From the NCBI GenBank assembly GCA_964389655.1, contig CAYMED010000024.1:6019-18175 (forward strand): a DNA stretch of 12,157 bases, in the 5' to 3' direction. Positions 21 through 8,472 of the stretch are shown here, one piece after another (position 1 is the stretch's first letter; every line of letters begins with the position of its first letter). Source of the DNA: an uncultured Candidatus Poseidoniales archaeon. GTDB lineage: Archaea > Thermoplasmatota > Poseidoniia > Poseidoniales > CAYMED01. The position numbers were made by a program, and so were the translations under genes. The notes beneath the pieces were generated by a model. The model saw only the letters and a program-made list of their open reading frames with translations, made no database searches and was not told where the DNA came from.

Positions 21-818
21 ATGCTTCCTGAACACCCAGGGGGGCTTTTGTCTTGGATATGTTCGAATGAATTTGGAACTAGACATGCCACTTTACTAGA
101 TCCCGCTGACCAATCAGCAGAAGATGCTGCAGCCAAGGCTTTGGCTGCAGTTGAAGGCGGTAGTAAGTTGATTTTAGTGGGGGGCTCAACAAATACTCCA
201 GAAAATAAAGTACATGATACAGTTGTTGGGATTCAAGAAGCTCTAGAATTGCGTGTTTGGGCAGCTTCACAAGATTCTACCGTGGATGAAGAAGATTGGA
301 GAATACCAGTAATTCTCTTTCCCGGGGGCGCCCATGCTCTTTCTTCATCTGCAGACGCAATTTTATTCATGATGTTGATGAATAGCATCGATCCAAGATT
401 TTTAGTTGAAGAACAGGTAAAAGGTGCCACCTGGCTCCACGAAGCAGGAGTAGAAATGCTTCCAACCGCATATCTGATTTGCGAACCTGGTGGGAAAGCG
501 GGAGAAGTAGGACAAGCGATTTTGCTCAATTCACCAAAGGACATCCGCGCTTATTCGTTATGTGCTAAGGGATATGGAATGAAAATTCTCTATCTTGAAG
601 CAGGTAGTGGTGCACCCCTTCCTCTCGATTCAGAGATGATTAAATCCGCAGAGGGAGAGTGCCTATTTGTTGGTGGAGGAATTAAAACTGCTGAACATGC
701 CATTTTAGCGAAAGAAGCCGGCGCCTCATGGATAGTTACAGGAACTATTGTCGAAGAACAAGAAGATCTAGATATAATTCGTTTAACAATTGAACAACTA
801 GTATCAGCGTTGAACTAA
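21..818 (+). CDS. Geranylgeranylglyceryl phosphate synthase (GGGPS/PcrB family, group II-like)
   Basis: Family motifs LLDP, LVGGST, PVILFPG, ADAILFMMLMNS, AYLICEPGG, LYLEAGSGA, VGGGI and GASWIVTGT occur in the expected TIM-barrel order. The stop overlaps the convergent gene's stop by 4 nt. Confidence 0.93.
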   Translation: MLPEHPGGLLSWICSNEFGTRHATLLDPADQSAEDAAAKALAAVEGGSKLILVGGSTNTPENKVHDTVVGIQEALELRVWAASQDSTVDEEDWRIPVILFPGGAHALSSSADAILFMMLMNSIDPRFLVEEQVKGATWLHEAGVEMLPTAYLICEPGGKAGEVGQAILLNSPKDIRAYSLCAKGYGMKILYLEAGSGAPLPLDSEMIKSAEGECLFVGGGIKTAEHAILAKEAGASWIVTGTIVEEQEDLDIIRLTIEQLVSALN

Positions 819-2077
819 TCATCATCCTCGTAAACTACAGGATCCCCACTACCACCGGGAGCATTTGGTCTAGTATCAGGCTCATCTCCTTGTGGTAAAG
901 ATTCAACACTCTTTTCGAGATCTATTTCATCCCCTCCTGCTAAAGTATGCATATCATCTAAAGAAGGCGCCTCGATAACTCTCTTCTTAGGGCCTTCTTC
1001 GACGATACGAGCCCGCGTATCTTCTCTAGCGGAATGATCTCTTACCAACCCGAGAGAATCTTGGAACACTCTACCAACAACCTCTCTCGTCTTTTCACTA
1101 CGTCTAGCCGCATCAAGCTCCAACATCGCCCTTTCACGCTGACTCTCTACTTCCTTTAGTTCTGAAGTTCTATCTTGCAATGCCGCTTCAAGGTCAGTGA
1201 TGGTCAGATGCATTTGTTGCACTCTTTCATCTCTTTCAAAGACATCATTATGCAAACGTCTTTCGCGCCTTCTCAAAGCCTCATATTCACGATTCCTTTC
1301 TAACAATCGCCTCTTTAATTCTTCAATTTGTTCGACCAAGTAATCATGTTCTGCACTAACAGATCTCGGGCCAGTCATGACTCTCTCTAACTGTTCTTCC
1401 AATTCACCCAACCGCCTATCGCGCTGATCTAACAATCCTCTCAATCTATCAGCAATCTCTCGCAATCTTTGCCGTTCTTCTTCCAAAGCCTCTCTTGCTG
1501 CAATTTCTGCAGCCAGATCCTCTTCTCGTTGGTCCAATTGTCCTTTTAAACCTCTGACTTCATCAGCAGTAATCGATGTCAAACCCGCCTGGGCCGCCTT
1601 ATCTAGAGCAGAAACCAATTCATCCATCTTTGCTTCCAATTCAGCAACAACATCAGCTTGTTCTATTGTTAATTCACGCAGTTGAGCATTTTCAGCCTTC
1701 ATCGCTTCTCTTTCTTCAGCAGTCATCGATGCCGCCAATGCTTCCAATTCAGAACGGGCATCCTCCAACATCCGCTCAAGATGAACTACCCTCGCATCTT
1801 TTTCTTGCAACATCTGTTCAGCTTCAGAAAGCCTTGCTATTTCTGGAGCAACCCCATCTTCTCTTTCAGCTAAATCTAGCTCTACTACGCGCAACTTTTG
1901 CTTCGCATCCGCCAACTCTTTGTTTCTTTCACTCAATTCTTCCCAAGCGATCAAAACTTCGTCAACCAATTGCTCAGTGGGATATGCTTTCAACATCCCT
2001 TCTAAAGCGGCACGGTCACTATTATCGATCAACCCAGAAGCCCCATCTGAACCGGGTGTCGCAGCCTCTACAGACAT
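815..2077 (-). CDS. Long coiled-coil protein of unknown function (short head, ~300-residue E/R/L/A-rich rod, acidic Pro/Gly tail ending VVYEDDD)
   Basis: The ORF is open from TTG 2098. ATG 2077 is preferred because a TATA-position motif lies at 2108-2113; ATG 2092 is an alternative. It shows heptad-like periodicity, with no Walker A/B, signal peptide or TM segment. Confidence 0.85.
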   Translation of the reverse strand: MSVEAATPGSDGASGLIDNSDRAALEGMLKAYPTEQLVDEVLIAWEELSERNKELADAKQKLRVVELDLAEREDGVAPEIARLSEAEQMLQEKDARVVHLERMLEDARSELEALAASMTAEEREAMKAENAQLRELTIEQADVVAELEAKMDELVSALDKAAQAGLTSITADEVRGLKGQLDQREEDLAAEIAAREALEEERQRLREIADRLRGLLDQRDRRLGELEEQLERVMTGPRSVSAEHDYLVEQIEELKRRLLERNREYEALRRRERRLHNDVFERDERVQQMHLTITDLEAALQDRTSELKEVESQRERAMLELDAARRSEKTREVVGRVFQDSLGLVRDHSAREDTRARIVEEGPKKRVIEAPSLDDMHTLAGGDEIDLEKSVESLPQGDEPDTRPNAPGGSGDPVVYEDDD

Positions 2078-2149
2078 GATATCGCGTTGCATCGGCAACA
2101 GTCCATTCTTGAACCTTCACCTTGTAATCGGCAGATAATGGCCGTTCAT

Positions 2150-2164
2150 CGCCCCTACGGGGCG
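2150..2164 (-). terminator. GC-rich hairpin just downstream of the actin-like gene
   Basis: CGCCCC-TAC-GGGGCG is a perfect 6-bp stem 8 nt after the stop codon. No strong U-tract follows, so its function is uncertain. Confidence 0.35.
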
Positions 2165-2172
2165 TACCGAAA

Positions 2173-3177
2173 TCAGTTAATTGCCGTGTATTGCTCATCA
2201 GGCATTGCGTTTGCCAACTTCAATGCTCCAGAGGCAACACTCACGATTGGATTGTCCACACACCATACTCTAACATCACCAATATCAGCAAGTTGATCTG
2301 CAACCATTTCTGCAACTCCGCCAATCATTGAACCCCCTCCACTGAGGATGATATTATTGCGGAATTGTGGTTGGTATTCAGGGTCGGCTGTAGCGATAAT
2401 TGACTTGATGGCCCCAACAACATGTGGAACCAAAGCCTCGCACCCTTGTCGAATGATATCTCCAATATCAACGATATTCTTCTTACCTTCAACCGACAAT
2501 TCAACCATACACTCTTCGTCATCTGTACCGACATAAGAGAATTCTTCCTTCCATGAACGAACCATGTCTTTTGTTAACTGAGCACCCGTGTATTTCTTTT
2601 CAATAAGGTCCATTATTTGAAGATCCAACCAATCTCCCGCTTCAGCTACTGTGAACTCATCATCTTCGTTAGGGAAGGTTCCGTAAAGTCTAGCGACATC
2701 TGTAGTTCCTGCGCCGATATCGACAACGATTGAACCCATGTATTGATCATGATCAAAACCGGTAGCAAAAGGCTCGCTAACTACCATAATTGCGTTGACT
2801 TGACCACGTAGAGTAGCAACCAAATTCGACTTGTCAGTGAATGTGATGTGCGAAGGGCTGCAAATAACACCAAACACCTCATCGTATTCTTCTGGGTCTG
2901 CTACCTCAATTAAGTGGGATACGAATGCCTTAGCAGCAGCCAAATTCGCCTCATCATCCTGAGCAACCCCCGCAGCCATTGGACGGTAGATATTACAAGC
3001 CAATTTCTTAGCAAGCGCTTCATCTCCAAACAGCACATCCCTACCTAGCATATTTCGAGCAACAGGGTCTTTCGGTTTACCGACGACGGTTTCGATAGTT
3101 TGCAAAGCACCAGCACTCGACGCAATCGTCGATTGGTAGGTTCCAAGGTCAATTCCGATGTAGAGTCTTTCGCCCAT
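2173..3177 (-). CDS. Actin-like ATPase of the MreB/MamK superfamily, MamK-like
   Basis: All five actin-fold motifs are present: GIDLGT (phosphate 1), VVSEPFA (connect 1, catalytic Glu), VDIGAGTTD (phosphate 2), ILSGGGSMIGG (adenosine) and SGALKLA (connect 2). MamK-type strings include VVGxPKD, LGR..GDEA, KExFSxVG, CEALxP and PEYQ. SD-like GAGGA (3188-3184) favours ATG 3177; ATG 3183 is an alternative. Confidence 0.9.
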   Translation of the reverse strand: MGERLYIGIDLGTYQSTIASSAGALQTIETVVGKPKDPVARNMLGRDVLFGDEALAKKLACNIYRPMAAGVAQDDEANLAAAKAFVSHLIEVADPEEYDEVFGVICSPSHITFTDKSNLVATLRGQVNAIMVVSEPFATGFDHDQYMGSIVVDIGAGTTDVARLYGTFPNEDDEFTVAEAGDWLDLQIMDLIEKKYTGAQLTKDMVRSWKEEFSYVGTDDEECMVELSVEGKKNIVDIGDIIRQGCEALVPHVVGAIKSIIATADPEYQPQFRNNIILSGGGSMIGGVAEMVADQLADIGDVRVWCVDNPIVSVASGALKLANAMPDEQYTAIN

Positions 3178-3255
3178 TATCATTCCTCATACGCCGCGGC
3201 GTGGTGGTGCCACACCTGAAGTGGTCTTCAAGGTTGAGTCGCGGCAATCATTCCG

Positions 3256-3290
3256 AATAAACCAAATCTTCAACCAATTCTTGGTTTATT
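3256..3290 (-). terminator. 10-bp inverted repeat straddling the protease stop codon
   Basis: AATAAACCAA (3256-3265) and TTGGTTTATT (3281-3290) with a 15-nt spacer. Confidence 0.35.
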
Positions 3291-6149
3291 TCGATTAATT
3301 ATTGCAACCACTGCGAGGCATATCAGTGCACTGACAAATAAGAAGCCAGGAACCCCCTCTTCTTCCTTCTCTTTCTCCTTTGTTTCCATTGGAGCGGATA
3401 GGGGGTCTGTGCCATTCGCAATCTCCCCTCCATCATTCACCCCATCCCCATCGGTATCTTCTACCAATGGTTCAGTTTCATGATTAAATATTTCATCTCC
3501 ATCACTTAACCCATCACCATCAGAATCAGGATTTTTTGGATTTGTCCCCCTTTCTAACTCAAGAAGATCTAAAACCCCATCGCCATCATCATCTATGTCT
3601 AAATAATCACACAACCCATCTTCATCCAAATCCATTGGTAAATCATTACCAATGAATGGATCGCTTGAACATTGTATTTCTTCAGCGTCGCTAAACCCGT
3701 CACCATCACTATCGATTATTTGATCACAACCATCCGGCACTCCATCTTCATCAATATCAATCAAATCATCAAAGTCCGCACATTGATCAGAATTATCTCC
3801 AACACCATCACCATCGGAATCATTCGCTTCTGTAGCATCATCTGGAAAATCATCATCTTCATCACCTACTCCATCTCCATCACGATCCACTATCGAGTCA
3901 CAAGCATCAGGAATATTATCTCCATCAATATCAATCAAATCATCAAAGCCCGCACATTGATCAGAATTGTCCCCAACCCTATCCCCATCAGTATCTACAG
4001 ATTCTGTGGGGTCGTCAGGAAATGCATCGACCCCATCCTCCACTCCATCTCCATCACGATCAACAACATCTTCTCTAATTTCATCTACCCCCTTGATTGC
4101 AAGGCCAAAACCAATTCTATCACCGTTCAAACCAAGCATATCAGAGTGATTTCCAATATTTACAAATCTAGCATTTACACTCACATTTACCCATTCAGCC
4201 CCAGATAGCTCAGTCGCGGGGATTTTTATTCCAACAGTAGTTTCATTTCGAGGCGACAATTCCACTCTTTCTTCAAACAATGTAGAATATCCATCCTCTT
4301 CGAAAACGTCCCCATATGCGAATTTTCCTGCCGGGGTCTCAATTATCAACTCCAAATCATCGATTTGTGCAGGCTCAGGCCTTGGCGACCATGAAAGACG
4401 AACATCAAGATCGCCCCCGCTCCTATTCAATGTCCAAGAGGCGGATTCACCACTCGCAAGAAAGGGGCCCACCGCCCCATCTCCATTCCACGGAACCGAC
4501 TCAACCCGCTGCAATGGCCTTTCATCAACAGTGGAATCATATGCTCTATTCTGCACCAATTCTTGCCAATTATCCATGGCAAATGAGTCCCATAACCAAA
4601 TATCATTATTCGTTGGATCTTCTAAGTCAATTAGCCTAGATAGATTTGCGCGCCCCCAACCTTGAACATTATCGGGAGCCGCCCCCGTCTCCCCCCGTTC
4701 ATGCTGTAATCCAGGTATCGGCTCGGCGGCTAAAGCAATGACAGCCTTCAGCATTGGCCCACTCGGGGTATGGTTTTCCTGCCCAATCCAACCTTCCTCA
4801 ATCATCTGTTGAATTATGGCCGTGAAGGATGCCGCAGCAGGCGTGGCCATCGAAGAACCAGTACTTGTTCTTGTACCATTATTCCATGACTCATGTTCAT
4901 TATCAGCGGCAGCAGAAACAATCGTAACACCCGGCGCAGCGATGTGAATGCCTCTACGCCCGTCATGCGTTTCACCAACCGACGAAAATTCCCAGATACC
5001 ATGAGCCTCAGTTTTGGTAGTTACACTGACCGCTACTACCGAACGCGCATTAGCCGGCTCCATAATTTGCCCGCGGTTATTTCCCGGTGCAATAAACGCC
5101 ACCGACCATGGCACTTCATTTGACCACGCATCGAAATCATATGTTCGAGCAGTATATTCAACCGTATCATCACCCCATGAATTGGAGTGAATTACAGCGC
5201 CATTCCGTAATGCTTCCCAAAGCAACCAATCCACATCTGGAGGCACCCACCCCTCATCATTTACTATGTCTTGAACTACTAGTCTTGAAGCATGACTCAA
5301 AGAAGTCCCCTCTATTGCTGAAGTTGCATTATCAAACCAACAACCCAGAGTTCCTCCGATATGCGTTCCGTGCCCTCCATCTTGATGAGACAGAGTGTCC
5401 CAACCATCTAGAGTTTCATTCAACGATATGATTTTCCTATGTTCTTGTCCAGGAACCCCTGTAATATTCGCCCCATCACCCCCCTGTCTGAAACAAGCAT
5501 GATCACGATCAAGCCCAGAATCAGCAAAAGCAACGATAACTCCAGAACCGTTCAAACCCAGACCCCAAATTTCTCTAGAATCACTAATACCAGAAGTCAT
5601 CAATCCAGCAGCGATGTCATTTCTTGCTGAAGTTTTTAGAACAGGCTCAATCCAAAGAATTCCAGGAATATGTAAAACCTGCTCAAGTGATTGACCCCCC
5701 CATTCGACTACGATTCTAGCAGGCATCGCAGAACCACTTTGCGGCATGGATTCCAATTCTATGGTAAATCCAAACCGCTCTAGTTCTGTAAGAACGAAAG
5801 AAACCCCTTCGAATGGGAGCCTTGGCTCCAATAAAATTCGCGTTTCGGCTTCAGGATATGCTTTTTCTAACCCCGGCCGCCATTCCGCCGGCCCCGCCTC
5901 ATCTCCAGTAGTACCCCAAGCTAATACGGTATATGGCCCCAACTGCCGCAAAGGAGTCAACCCCTTCTCTCGCAACTTATTCCAATCATCCGCTGACCAA
6001 ATTTCATCCGAGGTAACGATTACTTCTCTAGCATTTAGGCCAATGTTTTCTGTAAAGTCAGCAGCATTTCCAATAGGCACCAGCAGAATCAGCAACGCCA
6101 CCGCGAAGGCCTTGGAAGAACTAAGCACAATCCTATCCGAAGCACCCAT
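3270..6149 (-). CDS. Secreted S8 subtilisin-like serine protease (KP-43-like) with TSP type-3 Ca-binding repeats and a PGF-CTERM anchor
   Basis: N-terminal signal peptide (KAFAVALLILLVPIGNA) and prodomain. Catalytic Asp (FADSGLD), His (GHGTHIGG), oxyanion Asn (APGN) and Ser (TGSSMATP). KP-43-type HSNSWG, PSGPMLKA and QGWGR strings, many DxDxDG repeats, and C-terminal VPGF + TM helix + basic tail. GTG 6152 is an alternative start. Confidence 0.93.
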   Translation of the reverse strand: MGASDRIVLSSSKAFAVALLILLVPIGNAADFTENIGLNAREVIVTSDEIWSADDWNKLREKGLTPLRQLGPYTVLAWGTTGDEAGPAEWRPGLEKAYPEAETRILLEPRLPFEGVSFVLTELERFGFTIELESMPQSGSAMPARIVVEWGGQSLEQVLHIPGILWIEPVLKTSARNDIAAGLMTSGISDSREIWGLGLNGSGVIVAFADSGLDRDHACFRQGGDGANITGVPGQEHRKIISLNETLDGWDTLSHQDGGHGTHIGGTLGCWFDNATSAIEGTSLSHASRLVVQDIVNDEGWVPPDVDWLLWEALRNGAVIHSNSWGDDTVEYTARTYDFDAWSNEVPWSVAFIAPGNNRGQIMEPANARSVVAVSVTTKTEAHGIWEFSSVGETHDGRRGIHIAAPGVTIVSAAADNEHESWNNGTRTSTGSSMATPAAASFTAIIQQMIEEGWIGQENHTPSGPMLKAVIALAAEPIPGLQHERGETGAAPDNVQGWGRANLSRLIDLEDPTNNDIWLWDSFAMDNWQELVQNRAYDSTVDERPLQRVESVPWNGDGAVGPFLASGESASWTLNRSGGDLDVRLSWSPRPEPAQIDDLELIIETPAGKFAYGDVFEEDGYSTLFEERVELSPRNETTVGIKIPATELSGAEWVNVSVNARFVNIGNHSDMLGLNGDRIGFGLAIKGVDEIREDVVDRDGDGVEDGVDAFPDDPTESVDTDGDRVGDNSDQCAGFDDLIDIDGDNIPDACDSIVDRDGDGVGDEDDDFPDDATEANDSDGDGVGDNSDQCADFDDLIDIDEDGVPDGCDQIIDSDGDGFSDAEEIQCSSDPFIGNDLPMDLDEDGLCDYLDIDDDGDGVLDLLELERGTNPKNPDSDGDGLSDGDEIFNHETEPLVEDTDGDGVNDGGEIANGTDPLSAPMETKEKEKEEEGVPGFLFVSALICLAVVAIINRNKPRIG
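3717..4064 (-). repeat. Tandem 174-nt (58-aa) duplication within the TSP3 region of the protease
   Basis: Units are 3891-4064 and 3717-3890. The string catcaatatcaatcaaatcatcaaag occurs at 3749 and 3923 (offset 174). Both units encode VDRDGDGV...GDNSDQCAxFDDLIDID...PDxCD. Confidence 0.9.
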
Positions 6150-6174
6150 CACACGTCAACGCATCGCCAATACG

Positions 6175-6204: not shown

Positions 6205-6228
6205 GGGGATTTGCAGGTCGCCGGCGCT

Positions 6229-6492
6229 ATGCAGGCTTATCGTATCGAAGGAATCGCCCCGTTCGGCAAGCAAACCCAGAAGTTTTCGCAAGACATTGTA
6301 GCATCTAATGAAGAAGATGCGAAACACCGAATCTATTCTATTCTCGGTAGTAGGCACCACATCAACAGGCGCCAGATTACCATAGAATCGTGCAAGAAAA
6401 TCAAACCCTCCTCCTCTCAAGACCCATTGGTTATTCACCACTTTCGTGAGCAAATAGCCGCTTCTGGAAATACTTCTTCAGAAGAGGAGTGA
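6229..6492 (+). CDS. rpl18a: 50S ribosomal protein L18Ae (eL20/LX)
   Basis: MQAYRIEG...KFSQDIVASNEEDAKHRIYSILGSRHHINRRQITIE matches the LX family and sits in its usual position upstream of pfdA-ftsY. ATG 6229 is preferred over TTG 6211. Confidence 0.92.
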   Translation: MQAYRIEGIAPFGKQTQKFSQDIVASNEEDAKHRIYSILGSRHHINRRQITIESCKKIKPSSSQDPLVIHHFREQIAASGNTSSEEE

Positions 6493-6540
6493 ACCTTCGG
6501 TGGGTTGATGACGCCCGCCCTTCACGGGTGTGCGTTCAAC

Positions 6541-7035
6541 ATGAGTGATGGGGCCGAGTTACAGCGCATAGCCCGCCTGATTGAGATGAACCGTCAACGA
6601 CTTGGACAAGTTGAACAACAACTATCCCAACTTGAATCGGTGTCCAAAGAGCATTCAGAAACTGAAGAATCTTTGATAGCACTAATTTCATCTTCCGACT
6701 CAATGATACCATTGGGGGCGGGCGTCCACCTCCCAATTACAAATCAGAAGAAGGTGGTTGTTGATCTAGGCTCAAGTGTTTTTGCAGAAAGGACTCTGGA
6801 ATCAGCGGCGAAAATAATGTCCCAAAGACAAGAAGACCTTCAATCCGTCATCAAAGAATTGACAGAGCAGTATATTTCAACTGAACAGAAGGTGAAAGAA
6901 CTCACGGCTTCATTGGAGAAGGAGGTTGAAAATACAACAACTCCGGGGGCTACGGGCCCCTCCGAACCAACAAAGACTACCCAGCCCCGCCGCCCCCGTC
7001 GGGGATTTGGTGGTGAATTGACCATGGATGATTGA
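6541..7035 (+). CDS. pfdA: Prefoldin alpha subunit
   Basis: Coiled coil / beta-hairpins (MIPLGAGVHL, KVVVDLGSSVFAERTLESA) / coiled coil architecture, in conserved synteny between rpl18a and ftsY. ATG 6541. Confidence 0.9.
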   Translation: MSDGAELQRIARLIEMNRQRLGQVEQQLSQLESVSKEHSETEESLIALISSSDSMIPLGAGVHLPITNQKKVVVDLGSSVFAERTLESAAKIMSQRQEDLQSVIKELTEQYISTEQKVKELTASLEKEVENTTTPGATGPSEPTKTTQPRRPRRGFGGELTMDD

Positions 7036-7044
7036 GGTGGAATT

Positions 7045-8472
7045 ATGGGCCTATTCGATCGATTCAGAAAGAAGATTAAGAAAGCGGTTGAAGATATTGA
7101 CGAAGAGGAATTAGCAGCATCCGAAGATAGCCAAGAAGCAATAGATGCACTCACAAAAAAACAAGATGCGATAGAACAGAATCATGAACTTCACTCTACT
7201 AAAGAATCCCCCCCTTCCTCTGATTATGAAGAAGACGAATGGGACGATATTGAGGATGTCTTAGAATCTTTGGAAGATTTAGAAGACGAATGGGATGAAT
7301 GGGATGAGGAAGAGGTTGAAGCCCCCCCACCAATGAATATCACTAAGAAAGAACGTAAACGTTTGAAAAGCCAAAGAAAATCAGAACAAAAGTCGGTTAA
7401 GAAAGCCGAGAAGAAGACTAAGAAAAGGGGCCTTGCCGAAGTCGGCCGAATGAAAGGCTCTCAAGTGGATTTACACATGATGCGCTCCACCACTGGTAGA
7501 AAATTAGTCAGTGTCAAGGCAGCACCAAAAGGCTCTACTGGAAGTAAAACTGTGGAGACCTTCGAAGGTCAAGATATCGAAATAGACTTGGGAGGTGGAG
7601 TAGTAGAAAGTGGAGGTAAGGTAATCAAAGAAAGCACTGCCCTCGATGAACTTCTTGAAGAATTGGAATGGGCCTTACTCGAAGCGGATATGAGTAGCGA
7701 TGCAACTACTGAAGTATTGAGGGCACTAAGAACAGAACTTGTAGGCAGCAGATTACGTAAAGGGGCGGATATATCCAAAGTTGTAGAAGCCAGTTTGAAA
7801 AGATCTCTTCACGCCCTGTTAAGTGCGGATTATTGGGATTTTAATGCAACTGTAGATTCAATGATCGATGCAGGAGATACGCCCGTGGTAATCATGATGG
7901 TTGGAGTTAATGGGACCGGTAAGACAACCACTGCTGCAAAAATCGCCCACCGTTTGAAGGAGGATGGCCGCACAGTTGTTGCGGCAGCAGCAGATACATT
8001 CAGAGCAGGGGCAATAGAACAACTCGAAACTCACTGTGAACGCATAGGTATACGTTGCATTTCTAGTCAACGCGGAGGGGATGCTGCAGCAATTGCTCGT
8101 GATGCTGTTGAAAGTGCAAAAGCCAGAGATGCGGATGTAGTTATCATCGATACTGCAGGAAGAATGCAAAACAAAATCAATCTGATGAATGAGTTACAGA
8201 AAGTACATCGCGTCTGCAAACCCCACTTAGTTTTGTTTGTCGGAGACGCATTAGCTGGTAATGATGCGGTTGATCAAGCCATTCAATTCCAGGAAATTTT
8301 AAAATTTGATGGAGCGGTACTTTCCAAGATGGATACAGATGCTAAAGGGGGAGCGGGACTATCGATCGCTTTCTCAACAGGGCGCCCTATTGTGTTAGCA
8401 GGAATTGGACAAGAATATGGTGATTTAATTCAATTCGACCCAACATGGTTACTGAAGCAATTGTGGGATTGA
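7045..8472 (+). CDS. ftsY: Signal recognition particle receptor FtsY
   Basis: NG-domain motifs LLEADM, GVNGTGKTTT, DTFRAGA, DTAGR, KMDTDAKGG and GIGQEYGDL. N-terminal MGLFDRFRKK amphipathic helix and acidic region. SD GAGGTG at 7034-7039. Confidence 0.97.
   Translation: MGLFDRFRKKIKKAVEDIDEEELAASEDSQEAIDALTKKQDAIEQNHELHSTKESPPSSDYEEDEWDDIEDVLESLEDLEDEWDEWDEEEVEAPPPMNITKKERKRLKSQRKSEQKSVKKAEKKTKKRGLAEVGRMKGSQVDLHMMRSTTGRKLVSVKAAPKGSTGSKTVETFEGQDIEIDLGGGVVESGGKVIKESTALDELLEELEWALLEADMSSDATTEVLRALRTELVGSRLRKGADISKVVEASLKRSLHALLSADYWDFNATVDSMIDAGDTPVVIMMVGVNGTGKTTTAAKIAHRLKEDGRTVVAAAADTFRAGAIEQLETHCERIGIRCISSQRGGDAAAIARDAVESAKARDADVVIIDTAGRMQNKINLMNELQKVHRVCKPHLVLFVGDALAGNDAVDQAIQFQEILKFDGAVLSKMDTDAKGGAGLSIAFSTGRPIVLAGIGQEYGDLIQFDPTWLLKQLWD

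Follow-up and report, generated by a model that had tools for sequence, protein, structure and literature searches.

Does the actin-like gene of an uncultured Candidatus Poseidoniales archaeon form, together with the gene that follows it, a two-part filament system, or are the two genes only neighbors? The locus lies in a window of 12,157 nucleotides (nt), the whole stretch of DNA that was analyzed (positions 6,019 to 18,175 of contig CAYMED010000024.1, GenBank assembly GCA_964389655.1). It encodes a MamK-like actin and, directly downstream, a long coiled-coil protein, here called the rod protein. The pair itself is real, conserved and lineage-specific. That actin and rod protein constitute a true two-part filament system specific to the Poseidoniales is the preferred reading, and a probability of roughly 0.55 is assigned to it.

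Judged by its sequence and its modeled fold, the window actin is an intact MamK-like actin-fold ATPase. Pfam assigns it to MreB_Mbl (E 1e-21), with weaker matches to Actin, Volactin (38 bits) and Salactin (30 bits). A search of the PDB ranks MamK first (5jyg, E 8e-66; 5jyg and 5ljv both about 1e-65), followed by BeeR (8r2n, 5e-39) and MreB (2e-11). Residues 5-332 are collinear with residues 10-338 of 5jyg (328 residues) with a single 1-residue gap, and the phosphate-1, connect-1, phosphate-2 and adenosine motifs are intact (GIDLGT, SEPF, DIGAGTTD and GGGS are all present). The AlphaFold2 (AF2) model has a predicted local distance difference test score (pLDDT) of 91 and a predicted template-modeling score (pTM) of 0.88. 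Among solved structures the model most resembles that of the MamK filament subunit 5ljv_A (template-modeling scores 0.93 and 0.95, root-mean-square deviation 1.7 Å, 35% identity). Among the NCBIfam models, MamK (NF040964) scores best at 339.3 bits (E 2e-101), yet under its curated cut-off of 400. The other models are missed by wider distances: BeeR gives 206 bits against a cut-off of 530, the MreB models NF010539 and TIGR00904 give 74 and 61 bits against 293 and 366, and salactin (NF053533) gives 38.9 bits against an equivalog cut-off of 400. The gene lies outside any mam cluster, its neighbors being those for PcrB, an S8 protease, L18Ae, prefoldin and FtsY. Taken together, the NCBIfam, PDB and fold results place the protein just outside the curated MamK subfamily, as a MamK-like actin and not an MreB. 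The source names of near-identical public proteins assign the sequence to Candidatus Poseidoniales, the Marine Group II archaea; the automatic annotation of these proteins reads "rod shape-determining protein MreB" or "hypothetical". Starting from another in-frame ATG, at 3183, the protein would have 336 amino acids (aa); homologs start with the ATG at 3177.

The rod protein belongs to no recognizable family. It matches no Pfam family at E≤0.01, Rod_CreS (PF19220) included, and phmmer against the PDB returns only chance-level coiled-coil matches (E≥0.04). A Foldseek search of its model against the PDB gave no match at E≤0.001, a result that is expected for an elongated helical monomer with a pTM of 0.24. 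An exhaustive HMMER scan of 1.84 billion representatives retrieved 107 proteins, nearly all of them fragments of the same family, together with some relatives of about 150 aa that cover the N-terminal part. As judged from these searches, the rod protein is lineage-specific and confined to the Poseidoniales. The SMC and Rad50 models reach about 29 bits against cut-offs of 567-729, match coiled-coil stretches only, and no ATPase domain is found in the 425 aa. A TTG at 2098 would lengthen the protein to 427 aa; the 425-aa form that starts at the ATG at 2092 agrees with the public cluster representative P0125.

The AF2 model of the rod protein, built on a 22-row alignment, has a pLDDT of 79 and the low pTM expected for a rod. 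It contains helices at residues 24-36, 39-122, 125-168, 176-240 and 245-366, followed by a small low-confidence element and a disordered tail. The long helices measure 84, 44, 65 and 122 residues and are interrupted at 123-124, 169-175 and 241-244. Hydrophobic heptad periodicity is significant over residues ~57-140 and 170-320 (z 3-6.6), and its register is unbroken from 211 to 322. Charged residues make up 40% of the protein, the net charge is -43, and the tail ends in VYEDDD. With a disordered head, a segmented heptad rod and a tail, this soluble protein has the build of the coiled-coil-rich cytoskeletal proteins, an architectural class and not a homology family.

Conservation along the rod protein is concentrated. 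In the segment 241-290 (GPRSVSAEHDYLVEQIEELKRRLLERNREYE.LRRRERRLH.DVFERDER), 31 of the 50 residues are invariant among orthologs that are just 46-65% identical overall. The region 197-322 holds 48 invariant positions, of which 32 lie outside the a and d core positions of the heptads. Because so many of these positions are not a/d positions, a conserved interaction surface is implied, and the pattern points to a putative binding surface within this region. The linker AGLTS.TA.EVR (169-180) and the hexapeptide RTREVV (334-339) are also conserved.

The comparative sample consisted of 121 genomes of the order Poseidoniales, in three families (f1, f2 and f3). The actin of the window, here type A, is present in 59/59 f3 genomes and in 14/60 f2 genomes; its identity is 69-77% in f2 and f3 and ~60-63% in f1. 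The rod gene follows the actin gene on the same contig and strand in about 70 of the 73 actin-bearing genomes, typically 75-130 nt downstream, and rod-protein matches at E<1e-90 occur within the order only in actin-bearing genomes. Within actin-bearing genera, apparent absences fall where the PcrB locus is unassembled or where a contig ends. The partner gene is adjacent to the actin gene and is inherited with it, as in modules of the ParMRC or MamK-MamJ type.

A different arrangement is found where the actin is missing. Seven f2 genera with small genomes (1.2-1.6 Mb) gave no actin match whatever. In six loci from such genera an intact open reading frame (ORF) of 150-175 aa occupies the position beside PcrB, and a seventh locus (genus g6) has the same short ORF on a contig where no PcrB match was found. 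The short ORF abuts PcrB in L055, L057 and L060, lies 0.4 kb from it in L056 and 2.4 kb from it in L058, and has no PcrB match beside it in L061. The genes for the S8 protease and the actin are replaced in these loci by APS (adenosine phosphosulfate)-kinase-like, sulfotransferase-like and other genes. The short protein, also a coiled coil, is well conserved among the actin-less genera, and its homology to the rod protein is limited to residues ~20-170, which indicates that the C-terminal two thirds of the rod protein were lost along with the actin. This shared absence is the best comparative argument that the two proteins are coupled.

The arrangement of the locus agrees with the description given in an earlier note, which was made from the letters of this DNA. 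That note had described an intact MamK-like actin and a soluble coiled-coil protein of ~420 aa with an acidic tail, encoded by co-oriented genes in an archaeal housekeeping context, and had found no mreC/D, mam, plasmid or mobile-element genes in the window. The sequence matches and folds reported above bear out the first two items, and the coordinates (Table 1) the third: the S8, actin and rod genes are three contiguous co-oriented ORFs on the minus strand, with 74-80 nt between actin and rod depending on the start codons. Housekeeping neighbors are indeed present (PcrB, L18Ae, prefoldin alpha, FtsY and orotidine monophosphate (OMP) decarboxylase), and so are the S8 protease, a receiver-domain protein and an epimerase. 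Pfam-level scans of the window proteins found no mreC/D, mam, plasmid or mobile-element families. The two comparisons that the note had proposed, of synteny and of phyletic co-occurrence, both came out in favor of the pair.

Table 1. Positions of the genes, sequence elements, protein segments and compared loci. Numbers refer to the window (nt) unless residues or another locus are named.
Feature	Position	Strand	Description and basis
Rod protein gene	815-2092	minus	425 aa from ATG at 2092; without Pfam or PDB family; AF2 helices, heptads
Type-A MamK-like actin gene	2173-3177	minus	334 aa from ATG at 3177; PDB, NCBIfam, AF2
S8 subtilase gene	3270-6152	minus	960 aa, TSP3 repeats, PGF-CTERM-like end; Pfam Peptidase_S8 and TSP3_bac
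PcrB gene, geranylgeranylglyceryl phosphate (GGGP) synthase	21-818		Converges on the rod, actin and S8 genes
Ribosomal L18Ae (LX), prefoldin alpha and FtsY genes	6211-8472		In a row, beyond the S8 subtilase
Motif GGTGAAGGTTCAAGAATGG	2103-2121	minus	11-29 nt upstream of rod ATG; alignment of loci
GC-rich hairpin CGCCCC-GTA-GGGGCG	2150-2164	minus	9 nt past actin stop codon; sequence, minimum-free-energy fold of intergenic RNA, z -2.1
Related motif, degenerate form CTCAACCTTGAAG	3226-3238	minus	49-61 nt before actin ATG; alignment of 22 actin-upstream regions
Inverted repeat across S8 stop codon	3246-3265 / 3281-3300		Sequence
Rod protein, head	residues 1-23		Disordered
Rod protein, N-terminal helical module	residues ~25-168
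Rod protein, linker	residues 169-180		Conserved
Rod protein, rod	residues 181-366
Rod protein, core	residues 241-290		Near-invariant, within the rod
Rod protein, acidic tail	residues 412-425		Conserved PGG...P...[DE] end
Short-form ORFs of actin-less genera	L055:6952-7446, L056:6970-7458, L057:6126-6593, L058:6067-6528, L060:6697-7221, L061:2089-2547
Type-B actin and zinc-ribbon protein loci	G000:C15:57066-59178; L062:6012-8222

Sequence elements around the two genes suggest how they are transcribed. Of 19 loci from three families, 16 retain the core GAA[AG]GTTCAAG of the motif upstream of the rod gene; the remainder of the spacer is not conserved. Within the 2.1-Mb assembly the copy upstream of the rod gene is the sole strict match. 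The regions upstream of the actin share the consensus GGTGAACCTT[GC]AAG, located 50-60 nt before the start codon in most loci. Written side by side, the two forms are GTGAA-CC-TT-S-AAG and GTGAA-GG-TT-C-AAG; they are similar, not identical. A strict pattern shared by both was matched 13 times in five f3 genomes, against 3 matches for a reversed control, and 5 of the 13 lie upstream of a type-A actin. The notion that the strict motif GTGAASSTTSAAG is private to the pair was discarded, since each genome has 1-2 further copies elsewhere; the four of these matches that were inspected all lie inside ORFs. GC-rich hairpins of differing sequence take the place of the window's hairpin in several other loci. 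The motif positions would suit a promoter or operator serving two separate transcripts under common control. The motifs upstream of actin and rod, together with the hairpin after the actin gene and the inverted repeat at the S8 stop codon, suggest that S8, actin and rod are three separate transcription units.

From gene identities, folds, synteny, phyletic pattern and motifs we infer polymerization, binding between actin and rod protein, and a cellular role along the following lines. The actin would be an ATP-dependent, filament-forming protein of the MamK type that itself carries no extension for binding membrane or cargo. Its partner, the rod protein, would be a dimer-forming coiled coil that acts as adaptor, cross-linker or co-filament. 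The actin-coupled part would be its C-terminal two thirds, with the near-invariant core and the acidic PGG tail, and the N-terminal module would attach to another cell structure that is present with or without actin. The two genes would form two transcription units, the hairpin after the actin gene and the similar upstream motifs allowing co-regulation at different levels. The most likely job of the module would be internal organization or cell shape in the lineages with larger genomes, and it may have been discarded in the course of genome streamlining.

The earlier note had already proposed a two-part filament system with the coiled-coil protein as adaptor or co-filament, and the scheme of an actin with a neighboring adaptor fits because of synteny, co-occurrence and the joint loss of the C-terminal two thirds of the rod protein. 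Several observations weigh against it, and they favor an explanation in which the two genes are neighbors only and the rod protein is an independent intermediate-filament-like scaffold (crescentin-like, or of the coiled-coil-rich protein, CCRP, kind) that is held beside the actin by a frozen gene order and makes no contact with it. Across the order, synteny extends over the whole block PcrB> <rod <actin <S8 ... prefoldin> FtsY>, and since the flanking genes PcrB, S8, prefoldin and FtsY are as syntenic as the pair, adjacency alone does not discriminate. The neighboring genes give no hint of a cellular role. Insertions between the two genes are tolerated, of ~0.5-0.7 kb in genus g14, ~1.5 kb in genome G101 and 3.9 kb in genome G107. 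The G107 insert (L044:6255-9944) encodes a protein of 1229 aa that has He_PIG Ig-like domains and matches a PQQ_2/BamB-like beta-propeller weakly, below threshold; the pair can thus withstand being set this far apart. A motif of its own precedes the rod gene, and a hairpin stands between the rod and actin genes. The persistence of the N-terminal module in genera without any actin implies an actin-independent role for this module, and the rod protein is, on this comparative pattern, not merely an actin accessory. The short proteins of the actin-less genera share derived features, so the co-loss may be one event, a single ancestral truncation; a PcrB tree gave no resolution of the number of independent actin losses. 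By protein-language-model features the look-alikes outside the protein's own clusters are crescentin rods, a weak lead with a score of 0.92 and 147 shared features of 256. Against this explanation stand the exact match between the loss of the rod's C-terminal two thirds and the loss of the actin, the likeness of the two upstream motifs, the missing Rod_CreS match, and the exposed conserved surface at 241-290, which needs a conserved partner for which the actin is the obvious candidate. The neighbors-only explanation is accordingly considered unlikely, though it keeps appreciable weight, and the two-part filament system is preferred.

Two further explanations assign the actin to other kinds of systems. 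If the pair worked like ParM and ParR, the actin would push or pull chromosomes (or else an integrated element), with the rod protein serving as DNA-binding adaptor. An actin with an adjacent adaptor is the layout of ParMRC and AlfAB, the invariant core of the rod protein is arginine-rich (RRRERRLH), and there are the weak SMC and Rad50 matches. These last scores reflect coiled-coil composition only, the rod protein has neither a ribbon-helix-helix nor a helix-turn-helix domain, and the actin is nearest MamK, the ParM model giving only E 0.0025. The locus is chromosomal and of housekeeping character, free of plasmid and mobile-element genes. A chromosome cargo had been among the suggestions of the earlier note; centromere-like repeats were not found near the pair, no iterons occur in the intergenic regions, and the direct repeats of the region sit inside the S8 gene. 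Segregation of this kind is regarded as very unlikely. The other explanation takes the S8 protease, the actin and the rod protein as one envelope module, for example with the cytoskeleton setting the place of a surface or secretion structure. In all three families these genes follow one another without a break and in one orientation, the S8 gene always upstream of the actin, and the S8 gene is absent from the locus wherever the actin is absent. The protease diverges far more than the actin (36-45% against 62-77% identity) and ranges from ~720 to 1369 aa, several such proteases occur per Poseidoniales genome (paralog matches), and nothing ties an extracellular protease of the PGF-CTERM type to cytoplasmic filaments. 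In addition, the S8 stop codon is spanned by an inverted repeat, and a motif of its own precedes the actin gene. A three-gene module is likewise regarded as very unlikely, and the S8 protease is most likely a long-standing neighbor and not a part of the module.

A polar motility apparatus, another cargo that had been suggested, is disfavored. Archaellin and actin disagree in their presence in five genera: g2, g4 and g15 have actin without archaellin, and g13 and g20 have archaellin without actin. Positioning of the archaellum was therefore rejected as an obligate link.

MamK is the closest relative of the window actin in both sequence and fold. In magnetotactic bacteria the partners of MamK are MamJ, MamY and McaA/McaB. 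A MamK-type actin with coiled-coil or acidic partners encoded nearby follows the same logic as the Poseidoniales pair. The differences are that the Poseidoniales actin falls short of the MamK cut-off, that its host is an archaeon without magnetosome genes, and that the rod protein has no detectable similarity to Mam, Mad or other families. In Desulfovibrio magneticus the MamK partners are the coiled-coil proteins Mad20, Mad23, Mad25 and Mad26 and the actin-like Mad28 (PMC12748827). Crenactin of the Thermoproteales is encoded adjacent to the SMC-like coiled-coil protein arcadin-4 and associates with it in cell-shape determination, according to the summary contained in PMC10869688. This pair resembles the one described here in that an archaeal actin is encoded beside a long coiled-coil protein, a likeness to arcadin-4 that is drawn from its description. 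Crenactin belongs to the eukaryote-like branch of actins, whereas the Poseidoniales actin belongs to the MamK branch, and the rod protein, unlike arcadin-4, has no SMC-type ATPase head. These two systems, MamK with its coiled-coil Mad partners (PMC12748827) and arcadin-4-associated crenactin (PMC10869688), are the closest analogs of the pair. The earlier statement that no characterized system has this make-up stands for the literature that was searched: a search on actin, MreB or the cytoskeleton in Poseidoniales or Marine Group II, or on the actin/rod pair, found no relevant paper. Pairings alike in function are known, however, in these two systems.

Other relatives are less close. BeeR, the Verrucomicrobiota MamK-like actin of PDB entry 8r2n, polymerizes with ATP as MamK does (PMC11929497). 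It shows that MamK-related actins occur in non-magnetotactic organisms, and it is the second-best match of the window actin in sequence and structure. BeeR has a disordered N-terminal extension of 30-50 aa and forms three-stranded tubes; the Poseidoniales actin has no such extension. Salactin and volactin are archaeal actins of the MreB/MamK neighborhood, and PMC10746226 gives MamK as the closest subfamily to salactin. The window actin matches both only weakly, and the portions of the literature at hand describe no dedicated adjacent coiled-coil partner for salactin or volactin. Crescentin and other coiled-coil-rich proteins share with the rod protein the succession of head, segmented coiled-coil rod and tail, and by protein-language-model features they form the nearest non-self clusters. 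The low overlap of these features and the lack of a Rod_CreS match separate them from the rod protein.

Poseidoniales genomes hold a second actin. This type-B paralog occurs in nearly every actin-bearing genome, is 43-48% identical to type A and scores 360 bits with the MamK model. Compared with the other Thermoplasmatota actins, types A and B group as sister clades. In all 11 of 11 loci the type-B actin has a conserved, co-oriented upstream partner of ~340-357 aa, which bears a zinc ribbon at either terminus and, between them, a conserved domain that matches no known family. In one single-contig genome (G003:C1:1175450-1176447) the type-B actin matches as two adjacent pieces (query 5-149 and 155-335), which may indicate a frameshift or a pseudogene. 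Beyond the Poseidoniales, a MamK-like actin was found in just 7 of ~238 sampled genomes of the phylum, at 36-43% identity. Downstream of three of these outgroup actins (L046, L047 and L048) the next gene encodes a protein of 429-618 aa whose globular N-domain (~250 aa), shared among them, is followed by a coiled-coil tail. In two other loci (L051:5250-7242 and L052:6434-8511) the actin and a conserved downstream partner of 318-341 aa lie inside a chemotaxis cluster with CheA-, CheY- and CheC/D-like genes. The rod protein shows no homology to the partners of the outgroup actins. To judge from these gene orders, MamK-type actins in the Thermoplasmatota repeatedly pair with unrelated, lineage-specific neighbors.

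A bolder reading joins these observations into a dual actin cytoskeleton of the Poseidoniales, in which two ancient sister MamK-like actins would each be served by a partner family of their own, new to science: the coiled-coil rod for type A and the double zinc-ribbon protein for type B. In this view the rod protein binds actin as a novel kind of co-filament or cross-linker, with segment 241-290 as a novel actin-binding motif, and its N-terminal module would tether the filaments to some structure that every Marine Group II cell possesses; streamlined lineages of smaller cells would be marked by loss of the system. As a whole this reading is doubtful and is put forward tentatively.

Few planktonic archaea are as abundant as those of Marine Group II. 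To our knowledge no pure culture exists, and their cell biology is almost wholly undescribed. The locus points to an actin system of Poseidoniales core genes that is mislabeled "MreB" in the databases. A partner family restricted to the lineage, a second actin/partner pair and a clean loss in small-genome genera provide expressible targets for questions of cell organization and genome streamlining. The pair also adds a case in which MamK-type actins outside the magnetotactic bacteria appear to have recruited unrelated, lineage-specific partners.

The window contig (C24 of bin G000) is probably not native to its bin. Over its whole length it is syntenic with C4 (13600-27100), C22 and further contigs in the bin, the encoded proteins being 45-55% identical, and FtsY, prefoldin, PcrB, OMP decarboxylase and other genes are each present twice in the bin. 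The actin of C24 nests inside the f3 clade, and the bin itself belongs to f1 and has 5.7% contamination. Because of the gene-for-gene synteny with contigs of the same bin and the f3 actin in an f1 bin, C24 is most likely foreign, a contamination from a Poseidoniaceae-like organism. A paralogous duplication of the pair within one genome was considered and rejected, since the C4 copy belongs to the bin's own f1 lineage; the two copies are most likely orthologs from two organisms.

Beyond FtsY the window continues with genes for a DUF1844 protein, a receiver-domain protein, OMP decarboxylase and an NAD-epimerase. In the Poseidoniales loci examined, prefoldin and FtsY again stand as a pair next to this locus, and DUF1844 follows FtsY in the window and in G107, the one other locus where it was seen. 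The S8 subtilase contains a 174-nt tandem duplication (3697-4044) within its bacterial TSP3 calcium-binding repeats. It ends in VPGF, a hydrophobic helix and a basic tail, which, read from the sequence alone, resembles a PGF-CTERM archaeosortase signal.

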